A DNA stretch of 64,000 nt from Escherichia coli (GTDB lineage: Bacteria; Pseudomonadota; Gammaproteobacteria; Enterobacterales; Enterobacteriaceae): the NCBI RefSeq assembly GCF_002854065.1, contig NZ_CP024147.1. The stretch is one strand, 5' to 3'. The stretch's first letter is position 1; each line of letters opens with the position of its first letter. Of this stretch, positions 3,387 to 49,050 are shown one piece after another. The position numbers and the translations under genes were made by a program. A model generated the notes under the pieces. That model was not told where the DNA came from and ran no database searches. It saw only the letters and a list, made by a program, of their open reading frames with translations.

Positions 3387-4379
<993 letters not shown>

Positions 4380-8224: not shown

Positions 8225-8377
8225 TATTGGAATGCATTACCCGGAGTGTTGTGTAACAATGTCTGGCCAGGTTTGTTTCCCGGAACCGAGGTCACAACAT
8301 AGTAAAAGCGCTATTGGTAATGGTACAATCGCGCGTTTACACTTATTCAGAACGATTTTTTTTCAGGAGACACGAAC

Positions 8378-42171: not shown

Positions 42172-42879
42172 ATGAAACCCGTCGTGCTGGTGGTGGATGA
42201 TGACACGGCTATCTGCGCACTGTTGCAGGACGTGTTAAGTGAACATGTCTTTACGGTTTCAGTCTGCCATACCGGACAGGAGGCCATATTGCGTATTGAG
42301 GGCGATCCTGACATTGCGCTGGTGGTGCTGGATATGATGCTACCCGATACCAACGGCCTGAGGGTATTGCAGCAAATCCAGAAACTGCGTCCGACATTGC
42401 CGGTGGTGATGTTGACCGGCATGGGCAGTGAGTCTGATGTGGTGGTCGGGCTGGAAATGGGCGCGGATGATTACATCTGCAAACCGTTCACCCCGCGGGT
42501 GGTGGTCGCACGACTGAAAGCGGTGTTGCGACGGGTTGGTGCGCTGGCGGTTAATGACGAGAAAAGCGCCGGGCTGTCATTCAATGGCTGGTATCTCGAT
42601 ACCATGCGCTGCCAGTTGCACAATCCGCTTCAGCAACATGTCGAGTTAACTCAGGGCGAATATGGCTTGTTACTGGCTCTGGCGCAAAACGCGCGTCGGG
42701 TATTGAGCCGCGAGCAGTTGCTGGCGTTCACCCACAGCGACAGCGTGGAGGTGTTTGATCGCACCATCGACGTATTAATCATGCGCTTACGACGCAAAAT
42801 CGAACTCAACCCGCATCAGCCGATGTTGATTAAAACTCTGCGCGGTCTGGGGTATGTCTTCGCTGCCGACGTGCATTAA
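42172..42879 (+). CDS. OmpR/PhoB-family response regulator (REC + winged helix)
   Basis: MKPVVLVVDDD...VVLDMMLPDTNG receiver motifs; C-terminal wHTH (LTQGEYGLLLAL...LRGLGYVF); GGAG 7 nt upstream of ATG. Confidence 0.85.
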   Translation: MKPVVLVVDDDTAICALLQDVLSEHVFTVSVCHTGQEAILRIEGDPDIALVVLDMMLPDTNGLRVLQQIQKLRPTLPVVMLTGMGSESDVVVGLEMGADDYICKPFTPRVVVARLKAVLRRVGALAVNDEKSAGLSFNGWYLDTMRCQLHNPLQQHVELTQGEYGLLLALAQNARRVLSREQLLAFTHSDSVEVFDRTIDVLIMRLRRKIELNPHQPMLIKTLRGLGYVFAADVH

Positions 42880-43877
42880 TCCGACATTTCTGTTTGCAGC
42901 TCTTCCAGCGTTTTCGCCCCGTCGATGGCATTGGCGCATAACAGGCTTGCCCGCGCGCAGGCGTGTGCCAGTTTGATGCTCTCGGTAAGCGTCCAGCGTT
43001 CATGGCAGCCATATAAAAATCCGGCACAAAATGCATCGCCCGCGCCGACGCTGCCGATAATTTCCCGTTGTTCTAACTTTTGCGAAGGGATCCACACGCC
43101 GCCCTGTTCTGGGGTCTCTCCCCACGCCCCTTCCGGGCAGTGGATCACCACCCGCTGGCGCACGCCCGCATCTAACAGTTCACGCGCGGCGGCAGCAATA
43201 TGCGCGATATGCGGTTCGCCGTTGGGTAACCGAATTTCCAGCCCGCTAAACTCCCCGGCCTCCAGTTCGTTAATTACCAGATAATCCAGATGGCGCAACG
43301 CGGGCAGCACCAGCGGCTGATAACGCGGATCGCCCTTACGGGAGACCAGGTCGAGTGAGGTTTCAAAGCCAGTATCACGCATTTGCGCCAGCAGGCGTGC
43401 GCTACGGGTGCCGTAAACATCGTCCGGCATATCCAGGCTGTCGAGCAACAGTAAATAGCCGAGATGGAAAATCTTCATGGTGTTATCGAGCTGATCGAAC
43501 GCCGGAAGATCCAAAAGTCTGTTTGCACCCGGCGAATGGAAAAACGTCCGCTGCCCGCTTGGGTCTGTCATCACCTGCGACATCGACGTCGGGGCAAAGG
43601 TAGTGCGCTGCACATGCTGACGATTGACGTGATATTGCTCAAGCATCGCCATGATGTAATCGCCGTCGCTGTCCTGACCGATTAGCCCAACCGCCTGTAA
43701 CGGTAGCCCGGTGCGCATTTTCGCCAGCGTCAGCAGGACGTTAAGCGGCGCACCGCCGGTGGAGCGTTCGCTGTGGGTGATCTCCGCCAGCCAGCCGCGC
43801 TCTGGCCACTGGATAATCTGATGGACGTGGTCAACCAACATATTGCCTGCGGCGATAATCCCTTTACGCTCCATCAT
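42876..43877 (-). CDS. PfkB-family carbohydrate kinase
   Basis: 333 aa; N-terminal GG motif (GGAPLNV) and PfkB signature VGAGDAFCAGFL. Confidence 0.82.
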   Translation of the reverse strand: MMERKGIIAAGNMLVDHVHQIIQWPERGWLAEITHSERSTGGAPLNVLLTLAKMRTGLPLQAVGLIGQDSDGDYIMAMLEQYHVNRQHVQRTTFAPTSMSQVMTDPSGQRTFFHSPGANRLLDLPAFDQLDNTMKIFHLGYLLLLDSLDMPDDVYGTRSARLLAQMRDTGFETSLDLVSRKGDPRYQPLVLPALRHLDYLVINELEAGEFSGLEIRLPNGEPHIAHIAAAARELLDAGVRQRVVIHCPEGAWGETPEQGGVWIPSQKLEQREIIGSVGAGDAFCAGFLYGCHERWTLTESIKLAHACARASLLCANAIDGAKTLEELQTEMSD

Positions 43878-44734
43878 GCCTGCCCCGCACTGCCAAAAAT
43901 ACGCATCTGTTGTGCAACCGTATCGCTGATGGCGGCTTCCACTGCCAGCAGTAACTCGGCAAACTCGTCATACATCGGCTGACGGTGCGCCATTCGGGCC
44001 TCAACGGCAGCCAGCGCCGCTTGCGACATGCCAGTGTAGAAATTGATTTTGTGGATACCCAGTTCGATGGCGCGGCGGAAATCGGCATCACTAATCCCTG
44101 AGCCGCCGTGTAATACCAGCGGGATAGCAGCCTGCTGGCGGATAGCGTCGAGGCGCGGGAAATCGAGTTTCGGTTCGCCGCGATATTTGCCGTGTGCATT
44201 GCCAATCGCCACGGCCAACGCGTCAATGCCGGTACGGTCGACAAAATCACGCGCCAGTTGCGGATCGGTAAACAGGGATTCATCGGCATGACCATAGAGC
44301 GCACCGCCTTCGTCGCCACCCACCGCGCCCAGTTCAGCTTCTACCGATACGCCAACGGCATGGCACATTTTCACCACTTCCCGCGTCTGGCGGACATTTT
44401 CTTCATACCCCAGCGTGGAGCCATCAAACATTACCGAGCTGAATCCCAGCCGCAACGCTTGCACCACCGATTCAAAATGCAGTCCGTGATCGAGATTTAA
44501 CACCACCGGAATGGCATGACGCGCCGCTTCAAATTTCACTGTCTCGACCAGGGAATCCAGCGAGATATATTTAAAATGTACTTCGGCAATGTTGATAATA
44601 AAGGGCGAACGTTCTTGTCTGGCAGCAGCAAACAAGGCGCGTAAAAAGTGCGAGTCCAGCACATTAAACGCACCTAACGAATAGTGATGTTCGCGGGCAT
44701 GTGCCAGCCCTTCAGCGAGAGAAATCAATGGCAT
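43874..44734 (-). CDS. class II (zinc) ketose-bisphosphate aldolase, FbaA/GatY/KbaY family
   Basis: 286 aa; MPLISLAEGLAHAREHHYSLGAFNV, LNLDHG and LVLHGGSGI motifs. Confidence 0.82.
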   Translation of the reverse strand: MPLISLAEGLAHAREHHYSLGAFNVLDSHFLRALFAAARQERSPFIINIAEVHFKYISLDSLVETVKFEAARHAIPVVLNLDHGLHFESVVQALRLGFSSVMFDGSTLGYEENVRQTREVVKMCHAVGVSVEAELGAVGGDEGGALYGHADESLFTDPQLARDFVDRTGIDALAVAIGNAHGKYRGEPKLDFPRLDAIRQQAAIPLVLHGGSGISDADFRRAIELGIHKINFYTGMSQAALAAVEARMAHRQPMYDEFAELLLAVEAAISDTVAQQMRIFGSAGQA

Positions 44735-44748
44735 AACTTTATCCTTAT

Positions 44749-45432
44749 TCAGCGGAACTGGCGGTATTCGTTACACAATACCAACTGTGCAGGTTCGTCT
44801 TCGTCAATCAGGTTGTAGCGGGCCAGCGGGCGTAAAAAGTGGTTATCATGGTCGTCGTCATTGACTGAAGAGACTTCGCCAACCAGCACATCGCCAAAAC
44901 CGGTTTCCGCCCAAAAACTGTGATAAAGGCCGGGTGGCAGGCAGATACTTTCGCCGGGGGTCAGGCGTAACTGACTGCCTGCGACATGGGTCTGGCGGCA
45001 GCCGTCGATCACCACCGTAACGTCGGTATCAACTGTTTGCTCGTTGCTATCGGCATTCCACAGTTCAACAATCAAATTGCCGCCGCCGCGATTGATAATG
45101 TCCTCGCGCTTACGCCAGTGAAAGTGCATTGGCGTGACCTGCGCATCGCGCACATGCATGATCTTCTCGGCGTAACATTTCACATACGGCATTCCTTTTG
45201 CTGAGCCGTTACGTAGGGTAAACAGCGTCAGCCCCTGTGCTGCAAAGTTGTTGCCACCAAAAGCGGTAACATCCCAGCCGAGTTTGAGATCAAAAACTTC
45301 CTCCCACGCGGCGGTGTCGAGCTGCTGCCATTGGGCAGGCGAGAAACTGGCAAAGGGCGGAAGATGTACGTCATGTTGCGAAAAGAATTGCCGTGTATGG
45401 CCGAGAATGTCGTTTATAGCGGAGCGTTTCAT
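44749..45432 (-). CDS. cupin-type sugar isomerase (D-lyxose/D-mannose ketol-isomerase-like)
   Basis: 227 aa; cupin motif 1 HFHWRKRED and motif 2 PPGLYH; sugar-catabolic context. Confidence 0.7.
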   Translation of the reverse strand: MKRSAINDILGHTRQFFSQHDVHLPPFASFSPAQWQQLDTAAWEEVFDLKLGWDVTAFGGNNFAAQGLTLFTLRNGSAKGMPYVKCYAEKIMHVRDAQVTPMHFHWRKREDIINRGGGNLIVELWNADSNEQTVDTDVTVVIDGCRQTHVAGSQLRLTPGESICLPPGLYHSFWAETGFGDVLVGEVSSVNDDDHDNHFLRPLARYNLIDEDEPAQLVLCNEYRQFR

Positions 45433-45486
45433 CGAAAGCGTTCTCCTTAGCGGTGGCCGGGCAGCATCGCCGCCCGGCGTGTGGAC

Positions 45487-46428
45487 TTATTTCACCGTCC
45501 AGCCTTTGTAATTGCCGACGTTGTTTTTATCGATCATCGTCACCGGGATCAGCACCGGCTCTTTCGGCGCAGGTTTGCCCTGCAAAATGTCGTAGCCAAT
45601 TTCCACCGCTTTCGCTGCCATCACCTGGGGATCTTGCGCCGGAGTAGCGACAAACAACGAGTTCTCACGCTTGAGCGCCTCTTCGGCGTCCGGGCTTCCG
45701 TCCACACCGACAATAAAGAACTCGTTACGTTGCGCCTGTTTTGCTGCCAGATCGGCACCGATTGCGGTGGGATCGTTAATCGCAAATACGCCGTCGATCT
45801 TCGGATTTGCTGCCAGCAGTCCCGTCATTACCTCCAGCCCGCCTTCACGACTGCCTTTCGCGTTCTGGTTGTCAGAGAGCACTTTGATGTCAGGATGGCG
45901 TTTAAATTCAGTCTGGCATCCTTCGACGCGGTTTTGCACGGCGGATACCGGCGGGCCGTTGATGATCACCACATTGCCTTTGCCTTTCAGGCGATCGGTG
46001 ATGTATTTACAGGCCATTTCGCCCGCCTGGGTGTTATCGGAGGTGATGGTGGCATCAGCACCTTCTGCCGCTACGTCAACCGCGACAACTACGATCCCGG
46101 CATCTTTCGCCCGTTTCACCGCCGGGCCGATCCCTTTTGAATCGGCAGCGTTGAGGATAATCATATCGACGTTAGCGGCGATAAAGTTGTCTATCTGCGA
46201 CACCTGCTGACCCAGATCGTAGCCGCTGGAAACCAGCGTCACTTTGACGTTATCGCCTGCCAGTTTGCGTGCTTCCAGCTCCGCGCCTTTGGTGATCTGC
46301 ACGAAGAACGGGTTCGCCAGATCGCCCACCGTTACGCCTATTGATTTCAGTTCTTTCGCTTGGGCGAACGGTGCTGCGGCCAGCAGCGCGCCTGCACAGA
46401 GCGCGGTCACTAAGGGCTTCAATCTCAT
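45487..46428 (-). CDS. periplasmic monosaccharide-binding protein (ribose/allose-type)
   Basis: 313 aa; signal peptide MRLKPLVTALCAGALLAAAPFAQA; PBP type I fold hallmarks. Confidence 0.85.
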   Translation of the reverse strand: MRLKPLVTALCAGALLAAAPFAQAKELKSIGVTVGDLANPFFVQITKGAELEARKLAGDNVKVTLVSSGYDLGQQVSQIDNFIAANVDMIILNAADSKGIGPAVKRAKDAGIVVVAVDVAAEGADATITSDNTQAGEMACKYITDRLKGKGNVVIINGPPVSAVQNRVEGCQTEFKRHPDIKVLSDNQNAKGSREGGLEVMTGLLAANPKIDGVFAINDPTAIGADLAAKQAQRNEFFIVGVDGSPDAEEALKRENSLFVATPAQDPQVMAAKAVEIGYDILQGKPAPKEPVLIPVTMIDKNNVGNYKGWTVK

Positions 46429-46446
46429 GCTGTATTCCTCATGTGT

Positions 46447-47421
46447 TTATGCACTTTGATGGTGTCGGGTACGGTATTTGTCGATCAGCACCGCAATGAT
46501 GATCACCGCCCCTTTGATCACCAGTTGCCAGAAGTAAGAGACGCCCATTAAGGTCATGCCATTGTTGAGCGTGGCGATAATTAGCGCGCCGACCAGCGTG
46601 CCGGTGATGGTGCCGATGCCGCCGACAAAACTGGTGCCGCCGAGGATCACCGCCGCAATGGCGTCCAGCTCGTACCCCATACCTAAGTTGCCGTTGGCGC
46701 TGTACAGCCTTGAGGCGTTCATAATTCCGCCCAGCCCTGAAAGCAGGCCGCTCATACCATAAACAAACAGCAGCACCAGCCAGACCTTAATGCCGGTAAG
46801 ACGCGCCGCCTGCATATTGCCGCCGACGGCGTAGATATGAACGCCAAGCGTGGTGCGGCGCAGAATAAACCAGCACAGCACAATCACTGCGAGGGCAATC
46901 ACCACCAGCCACGGGACCGGCCCGAGATAGTTATTGCCTATCCACTCGAAATTAATGTTGGAGTTGATAACCGTGGTGCCGTCCGCCAGCAGATACGCCG
47001 CCCCGCGCAGCGCCGTATAGGTGCCAAGCGTGACGATAAACGGTGGCAATCCGGCAAAGGCCACCAGCGCGCCGTTGAACAGCCCCAGCAGCAGGCCGAG
47101 CATCAGCGCCGCCGGGATCGACAGCATGGCGAACTCAGGGCTAAGGGAGACGACCATCGCCGCCACCGCTGTGGTGCCGAGGATCGAACCCACGGAAAGA
47201 TCGATCCCGCCGGTCAAAATGATGAAGGTCATCCCCGCGGCCAGAACAATGTTGATCGATGCCTGGCGGGTAATATTCAGCAGGTTGCTTTCGGTAAAAA
47301 AGTTTGGCGCGATAAAGCCAAATACCGCCACGATCAGAATCAAAATGGGCAAGATGCCGACCGTTTGCATCAGATCGCTCATCAGCATTTTTTTGGCAGA
47401 AGTCTTTGCAGAGGTCGTCAT
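46447..47421 (-). CDS. sugar ABC transporter permease (RbsC/AlsC-like)
   Basis: 324 aa, ~10 TM segments. Confidence 0.85.
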
Positions 47422-48937
47422 GAGGGCACCGCCTGGGAATGGGCGTCGTTGACGCCAGTCGCTAAGGTCATAATGTTTTCCTGGGTGATGTTTTTGCCGT
47501 TTAACTCACCGGCAATGCTGCCTTCGCGCATCACATAGACGCGATCGCTCATTCCCACTATCTCCGGCAGTTCGCTGGAGATCATCAGGATCGCCACGCC
47601 CTTGCGCGCCATCTCGTTCATGATCCGGTAGATCTCGCTTTTTGCGCCAACGTCCACGCCGCGGGTGGGTTCATCGAGCAGTAAAATGCGCGGCCAATTG
47701 CCACCCAGCGGGAGATCAACAGCTTTTGCTGATTGCCGCCGGAAAGCCCGCCCGCGCGTACCTGGGCATGAGGCACGCGAATGTTGAGCAACTTGATGGC
47801 GTCATCGGAAATGGTTTGCGCTTTTTTGCGATTGAGCATTCCCCAGCGGGCATCGCGCTCCAGGGTCGCCATGGTGATGTTTTCGGCTGCCGCCATTTCA
47901 AGGAACAGCCCCTGTTCTTTGCGATTTTCGGTGAGAAAGCCAATGCCAAGATCGATGGCTTCGCGCGGGGAGTGGATCACCACCGGTTCACCATCGACTT
48001 CAATCATTCCGCCTGTCGCTTTCCGCACGCCGAAGATCAACTGCGCCAGTTCGGAACGTCCGGCACCCACCAGTCCGGCGAGGCCAACAATTTCGCCGGA
48101 ACGCACCAGCAGGCTACTCGGCTGGACTTTGCCGCCGTCGGTCAGGTGGTGAACATTCAGGCGGGCTTTACCGAGCGGGATATCGCGCTCTTTATTGAAC
48201 AGATCGCTCAGTGGCCTGCCGACCATCATCCGCACCAGCTCCCCGGCATTGAGGTTATCGCGGGTCAGGCTGCCAACGTATTGCCCGTCGCGCAGCACGC
48301 TGACGCGATCGGAAAGCTCATACACTTCCGCCATGCGGTGGCTAATGTAGATAATCGCCATCCCTTCATCGCGCAGCCGCATAATCAGTTCAAACAGGCG
48401 GTGAGTTTCGCGGGAGGAGAGGGCGGCGGTGGGTTCGTCCATCACCAGAATGCGGCTGTTGCGATGTAGCGCGCGGGCGATTTCGACCTGCTGTTGCTCG
48501 GCAATGGTCAGTGTCATGACCTTATCGCTGGCGTTAAACTGCGCGCCGAGGCGGTCGATCACTCTTTGCGCCTGCACCAGCATCTCTTTACGCTGCACCA
48601 GCCCGCCGTGGGAAAGCTCGCTACCGAGGAAAATGTTCTCTGCCACCGTCAAATTGGGCGCCAGCTGCATCTCCTGATAAATCAGCGTAATACCGGCGCT
48701 TAAGGCATCTTTTGGCGTGCGAATGTGAAAGGGCTTGCCGTCTATGAGGATCTCGCCGCTGGTGGCGGTATACGCCCCCGCCAGCACCTTCATCAGCGTG
48801 CTTTTTCCCGCGCCGTTTTCCCCCATCAGGGCATGGATCTCGCCAGGGTAGACCGTCAAATCCACCCCTTTGAGCGCATAAAATTTGCCGAAGGCTTTGG
48901 CAATATTGCGCATCTCCAGAACTGGCGTGCTGTTCAT
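47418..48937 (-). pseudogene. sugar ABC transporter ATP-binding protein (double ABC module), frameshifted near 47690-47700
   Basis: N-module Walker [10 protein letters not shown]; second signature LSGGNQQK; frame A ends ...[13 protein letters not shown] while frame B carries the expected continuation [13 protein letters not shown]...; consistent with a 1 bp loss in ggccgcgc (expected [10 protein letters not shown]). Confidence 0.75.
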
Positions 48938-49050
48938 GGTGGACTCCTGCGAGGTTGTCGATATCAGCACTCCATCACAGGAAAGTAAATGCAAAATGTC
49001 AGAAGCCGTTCATATTTGTCATATTGCGATTTTTCTTCACGGAGCGTGAT

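Follow-up and report, generated by a model that had tools for sequence, protein, structure and literature searches.

The closest described counterpart of the locus analysed here is the O-island OI-167 (Z5684–Z5692) of E. coli O157:H7. The names RbfS and RbfR belong to the riboflavin-sensing pair of this island, and riboflavin-responsive signalling to the LEE genes has been reported as an experimental property of RbfSR (PMC9860305). The same study stated the likeness of RbfS/RbfR to TorS/TorR, recorded rbfSR, among 2,134 genomes, in EHEC and O55:H7 alone, and did not discuss the transporter. The D-lyxose isomerase activity of Z5688 of O157:H7 is recorded in a second source (PMC6746899, citing J Mol Biol 401:866).

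We analysed a stretch of 64,000 nucleotides of an E. coli chromosome (contig NZ_CP024147.1; hereafter the window), which carries an OI-167-type island at 42172–52060. This island, which has the same gene order between yjcS and yjdP as OI-167 and a binding protein found under an identical accession in O157:H7 SS17, is a homologue of OI-167. Six minus-strand genes form its sugar uptake and catabolism operon, and the first of them encodes the ATPase (47418..48937, with the ATG at 48937, which is also the annotated and predicted start in all relatives). It is followed by an ABC permease gene (46447..47421; intact and identical to that of strain 100416), a gene for an RbsB-like periplasmic sugar-binding protein (45487..46428), a D-lyxose/D-mannose isomerase gene (44749..45432), a ketose 1,6-bisphosphate aldolase gene (43874..44734) and a carbohydrate kinase gene (42876..43877), all of them intact. 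The product of the isomerase gene matches PDB 3KMH, the isomerase of E. coli O157:H7 (E = 8.9e-154). The operon is flanked on the plus strand by two signalling genes. The response regulator gene (RbfR/Z5684 homologue; 42172..42879) is convergent with it, and its product is identical to that of O157:H7 SS17 (235/235 residues; 100%). The hybrid sensor kinase gene (RbfS/Z5692 homologue; 49051..51315) is oriented divergently to the ATPase gene, with a spacer of 113 bp, and its product is 99% identical to the SS17 protein (743/754 residues); the N-terminal part of the O157 kinase contains an insertion of 3 residues when compared with the kinase of the window. Every gene of the island except the ATPase gene is intact. 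The window does not come from an O157 strain; in O157, the ATPase gene that is broken here is intact.

The island, when tracked by its ATPase gene, was present in 410–421 of 5,426 complete E. coli genomes, and many of the carriers are non-EHEC strains, among them isolates from wastewater, otter, goat and human stool, and ETEC from pig. The clade of the window differs from O157:H7 by an extra gene between the hybrid kinase gene and yjdP, which encodes a GNAT N-acetyltransferase (51428–52060) and which O157:H7 SS17 lacks. The yjcS–yjdP site of strain PCP06171 is occupied instead by the als-rpiB (allose) operon (17911–24840 of locus L027), so that this operon and the OI-167-type island are alternative occupants of one site.

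We assigned the ATPase by profile searches with the repaired protein, in which the missing base described below was restored. Pfam PF00005 (ABC_tran) was found at residues 22–171 and 273–425, and the protein matched the AraG, XylG and RbsA models from end to end (E = 1e-158 to 1e-168; 1e-139 to 1e-168 over the RbsA, AraG, XylG, AlsA and MglA models). Like these CUT2 ATPases, it combines two ABC_tran domains in a single chain of about 500 aa, and its gene adjoins those of a permease like RbsC and a binding protein like RbsB (NCBIfam); the operon partners in related loci carry the Pfam domains BPD_transp_2 and Peripla_BP_4. Unlike the named CUT2 ATPases, the gene of the window is frameshifted and its repaired product does not reach the curated cut-off of any named equivalog (for AraG, 560 versus 689 bits). 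Therefore, its substrate should not be one of the named sugars, and the profiles place it as a fused two-domain (CUT2-type) sugar importer ATPase at the level of family membership only. A sequence search of PDB for solved structures closely homologous to the ATPase gave only generic ABC domains.

Domain 1 has a canonical Walker A (GENGAGKS, residues 39–46), a non-canonical signature (LTIAEQQ at 143) and a Walker B reading ILVMDEP at 163. Domain 2 has a Walker A with Arg in place of Lys (GLVGAGRS at 288), the canonical signature LSGGNQQK (398–405) and the Walker B ILLLDEP (418–424), and the position of its H-loop is read as Ser.

The sequence-only reading had proposed that the ATPase is split by a frameshift into two open reading frames, 47618..48994 and 47418..47657, and had ascribed the split to the loss of a single base in a short G/C run between 47680 and 47710. 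Both proposals hold. The same two minus-strand ORFs, overlapping and in different frames, are present in the ORF list, and when joined they match the 506-aa protein from end to end with a single 1-nt gap; hence the two-ORF arrangement is not a chance pattern. The gene measures 1520 nt in the window and 1521 nt (506 aa) in every relative examined. In an alignment of 47400–49000 with E. coli 100416, the closest relative, there was one difference in 1601 bases, namely one missing C. The site was placed at 47692..47693 from pairwise alignments with 100416 and CUWW06 and from an alignment of six alleles. On the gene strand, a CCC run that spans the codons of Gly415 (GGC) and Pro416 (CCG) is reduced to CC (TTGGCCCGCGC in 100416, TTGGCCGCGC in the window), and the plus strand reads GG where the relatives have GGG. 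The junction can be written as GGCAATTGGCC[C]GCGC, where the bracketed C is the base absent from the window. A terminator-like hairpin considered at 47704–47690 was rejected; it is a weak 5-bp pattern match, of which two were found against 2.4 expected from shuffled sequences.

The deletion, at codon 416, lies after the signature motif of the second nucleotide-binding domain and before the Walker B of that domain. Gly415 is the last residue in the common frame, and from Pro416 onwards the frame is lost. The other frame takes up the expected continuation of the protein after Gly415, as had been noticed. The upstream ORF (47618..48937 when read from the ATG) encodes 439 aa, of which 415 are native and 24 aberrant, so that the last 91 residues of the ATPase are exchanged for 24 unrelated ones. 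It had been described as stopping after '...CSM'; it actually runs 17 residues further, to a TGA at 47618–47620, as the ORF coordinate given in the sequence-only reading itself implies. It keeps the whole of domain 1, and domain 2 through the LSGGNQQK signature (47723–47746). The downstream remnant (47418..47657) is in the native frame and encodes 79 aa, with the GTG of Val428 as its earliest possible start; no Shine-Dalgarno-like sequence is present in the 12 nt before this GTG (CCCACCCGCGGC).

As a result, the coding sequence of Walker B of domain 2 (47667..47687) is untranslatable, because the upstream ORF passes through it in another frame and the downstream one can begin only 3' of it. 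More generally, residues 416–427 are in no translatable ORF, since the remnant starts at Val428 at the earliest. The window copy thus lacks an uninterrupted frame for the Walker B, D-loop and H-loop of both domains and, as written, reads as a pseudogene.

How would such a product behave? The shift at codon 416 would remove the region of Walker B, the D-loop and the H-loop, and with it core strands of the second domain. The only canonical LSGG signature of the protein is that of domain 2, and it would pair with the canonical Walker A of domain 1. Because domain 2 is not expected to fold and is the only source of a canonical signature, the ATPase should be inactive and ATP-driven transport would be abolished. 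This agrees with the earlier proposal of a probably inactive importer, in the sense that the Walker B2, D-loop and H-loop region is indeed lost and that the inactivity is a prediction from this loss. The downstream genes may also be affected. The ATG of the permease gene overlaps the native stop of the ATPase gene (ATGA), and the premature stop precedes that ATG by 196 nt. Translational coupling of the permease to the ATPase is therefore probably lost, and expression of the permease and of the genes downstream may drop. The importer would then be null in this isolate, with the flanking two-component and catabolic genes intact.

We surveyed the distribution of the deletion by a megablast search with 47400–49000 against the 5,426 complete E. 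coli genomes. We observed the following. The ATPase gene was found in 421 genomes, in 410 of them at 80% coverage or more, and every match listed spanned exactly one base more than the query. Neither the deletion nor any other length variant was present in the ∼55 rows sampled from the 410 gene-carrying genomes. A 101-nt query centred on the site found no 100% match in the complete genomes, and all of its 111 matches had the extra base. Seven further assemblies with the exact kinase allele of the window all had GGG at the site. The deleted junction was found on no contig in a metagenome scan, which is weak evidence as the intact-junction control was found on only six. The exact intact ATPase protein was present on 204 contigs; the truncated products (439 aa from the ATG, 458 aa from a TTG, and the 79-aa remnant) had no exact-product record.

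Six alleles of the gene, which diverge by up to 65 nt (4%), all measure 1521 nt, keep the CCC run and have no internal stop. Most substitutions among them are synonymous (65 nt changes with 9 aa changes, 32 with 4, 36 with 3, 11 with 0), a pattern which indicates that the intact alleles are under purifying selection.

One assembly in our survey has a different split in this gene. In the NCTC assembly GCA_900449015.1 (UGBN01000001.1; L024), the ATPase is divided into 378 and 145 aa at the equivalent of window position 47821 by an extra T in an A/T run. Three T insertions occur within 10 kb in that assembly, which also has a truncated phnN call. The split in L024 probably reflects long-read consensus errors.

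We then compared the window with its relatives over a longer distance. Strains 100416 and CUWW06 are near-identical to the window over 62 kb, and the changes private to the window with respect to these two are SNPs at 26236, 43704, 52851 and 53362, the deletion, and two IS1 insertions in espX5/yjcF. Three of the four SNPs are synonymous, including the one at 43704 in the carbohydrate kinase gene, and the fourth (26236) is a missense change, NrfD His8Tyr. Within 10 kb of the deletion, the private SNPs of the lineage are synonymous and all encoded proteins are alleles common in the clade. The NrfD change marks the lineage of the window and was present on only four contigs of the public assembly collection, from GCA_035821435.1, from SRA run ERR3985283, and two similar contigs. 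The contig from GCA_035821435.1 (JAPQBK010000035.1) starts with 76 nt of IS1 at the second IS1 site of the window and matches the window at 19,079 of 19,080 positions. No change private to the window was found in the 19 kb that it has in common with GCA_035821435.1, nor in its first 16 kb. Therefore, the indel may be the only isolate-specific difference of the window in 62 kb.

Gene calls in the assembly collection are made de novo, as is evident from fdhF, which is split at its selenocysteine codon. The truncated 246-aa EspX5 fragment of the lineage is indexed on five contigs, which means that at least five assemblies of the same IS1-marked lineage are indexed with their truncated calls included. 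As the lineage is indexed in this way and yet no truncated ATPase product is on record, the sister isolates probably carry an intact ATPase gene. On the simplest reading, the deletion is private either to this isolate or to this assembly.

These data leave two main explanations. A real and very recent null mutation by deletion of a single C is the one we prefer, and we consider its chance to be about even. Replication slippage in the 3-nt C run would be the simplest route to such a loss. The assembly is not prone to homopolymer errors, because none of the 221 homopolymers of 5 nt or longer in the 61,834 compared bases has a private indel, and the T8 tract at 8363 agrees with that of CUWW06. 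The lineage also carries other lesions that are real, namely the amber codon in aphA described below and the two IS1 copies in espX5, one of which is confirmed in an independent assembly. What counts against a real mutation is the missing record of any truncated product from the indexed sisters.

The other main explanation, an assembly error, which the sequence-only reading had itself allowed for, is that the isolate truly has CCC and an intact 506-aa ATPase, and that one base was dropped from the consensus. We regard this as quite possible, at a little under an even chance. The deletion allele was seen nowhere else among the sampled rows of the 410 genomes, the metagenome contigs and the seven assemblies, and the silence of the indexed sister assemblies points the same way. 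If the deletion is the sole isolate-private difference in 62 kb, a consensus error would account for this no less well than a mutation, and the long-read split in the NCTC assembly, with its three extra T's in 10 kb, demonstrates that such artefacts occur at this locus. On the other side, the affected run is only 3 nt long, whereas 221 longer homopolymers in 61.8 kb are concordant with the relatives, and the source assembly resolves its two IS1 copies cleanly.

It is very unlikely that the lesion is a mild one, with the truncated 439-aa ATPase, alone or together with the 79-aa remnant, still supporting transport. The second ATP site does look degenerate on a reading of the sequence (Walker A2 GAGRS, signature 1 LTIAEQQ, and Ser at H-loop-2), and the truncated protein keeps domain 1 and the canonical signature 2. 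However, the Walker B strand and all later core strands of domain 2 are absent, which makes folding improbable; residues 416–427 fall outside both ORFs, and the remnant lacks a ribosome-binding site. Furthermore, the full length is under strong purifying selection in all relatives, none of which is naturally split.

Still harder to credit is the idea that the deletion is real and was selected, the loss of transport through the first gene of an operon placed between rbfS and rbfR uncoupling sugar uptake from signalling. The RbsB-like binding protein and the TorS-like kinase could act as partners in the manner of TorT and TorS, and the output of the two-component pair would then change in a non-EHEC host. 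The hints of this are the weak similarity of the binding protein to TorT (E = 5.7e-11), the likeness to TorS/TorR stated in PMC9860305 and the silence of that study on the transporter.

The suggestion of a slippage-prone switch, either a phase-variable site that toggles or a programmed −1 site at which ribosomes shift at GGC-CG, hardly deserves credence: the lesion does lie in a homopolymer and a −1 shift would restore Gly-Pro, but the tract is only 3 nt (CCC, now CC), it does not vary among the six divergent alleles or in any genome or contig sampled, no orthologue is frameshifted at the site so that nothing conserved is there to be programmed, and no X XXY YYZ slippery heptamer is present. 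Contingency loci have far longer tracts. Phase-variable loci are recognized by a long simple-sequence tract and by polymorphism of tract length among strains, and the ATPase gene, whose longest homopolymer is 6 nt, has neither. A genuinely split ATPase, which the sequence-only reading had itself named as the arrangement in orthologues that would overturn the frameshift, was excluded since all orthologues have a single 1521-nt ORF.

The lesion, taken as a recent null mutation, is an ordinary loss-of-function allele of an accessory gene, without regulatory design. It resembles the ordinary strain-specific frameshift pseudogenes of E. coli in being a 1-nt indel in a short homopolymer with no compensating change, and resembles ordinary pseudogenes of accessory genes in having intact orthologues under purifying selection. 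The only feature that sets it apart from other frameshift pseudogenes is that it is apparently private to one assembly. In a known island, it is a common kind of frameshift in an accessory importer gene, or else a base-call error.

It had also been suggested that the frameshift, together with an amber codon in aphA and the IS1 insertion in yjcF, reflects ongoing gene decay. All three lesions are present in the sequence, but they differ in age. The aphA gene (3666–4379) has an amber codon in place of Trp180 (4203–4205), which occurs in only three of the 5,426 complete E. coli genomes, 100416, CUWW06 and PCP06171. Since it is shared with the clade members 100416 and CUWW06, and with PCP06171 besides, it is an older allele. 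The IS1 insertion is common at the level of the lineage, and the frameshift is the youngest lesion, or else spurious. Such lesions, three among about 60 genes and of unequal age, do not make a trend of decay when the island is otherwise intact.

We also noted other variation in the region. The two IS1 copies (16002–16769 and 17400–18167) are identical, 768 bp long and in the same orientation, and have separate 9-bp target duplications (TCTCTTTTA and ATTGGCTCT). They enclose 630 bp of espX5/yjcF in a layout like that of a composite transposon, and the second copy is common to the window and GCA_035821435.1. In CUWW06, a different IS1 lies 26 bp from the first IS1 site of the window, and the espX5/yjcF region looks like a hot spot of insertion. 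Between yjcE and actP, CUWW06 further carries a resistance island of ∼60 kb with qnrS1 and tet(A). Just upstream of the ribosome-binding site of ssb, in a promoter-proximal position, the window has a T8 tract (8356–8363). CUWW06 and some O157 strains also have T8 here, and 100416 and many other E. coli have T7; this is a common length polymorphism. Two lesions of CUWW06 are absent from the window, a stop in phnF (window position 60059; 27761–28486 of L003) and a 31-bp loss in phnD (window 62321–62351; 29392–30377 of L003). Small inactivating lesions vary between these two close relatives. Strain PCP06171, which has als-rpiB at the site of the island, also carries the aphA amber allele.

The lesion itself is of little weight, and its practical value is that of an annotation flag, to mark the ATPase gene as a pseudogene. 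The base call in this gene should be verified before conclusions on gene decay are drawn. If the deletion is real, the sugar of the OI-167-type island could not be imported by the isolate, a phenotype at the level of the strain. The island is of more interest than the lesion, as it places the virulence-linked RbfS/RbfR pair of O157:H7 in a non-O157 background.
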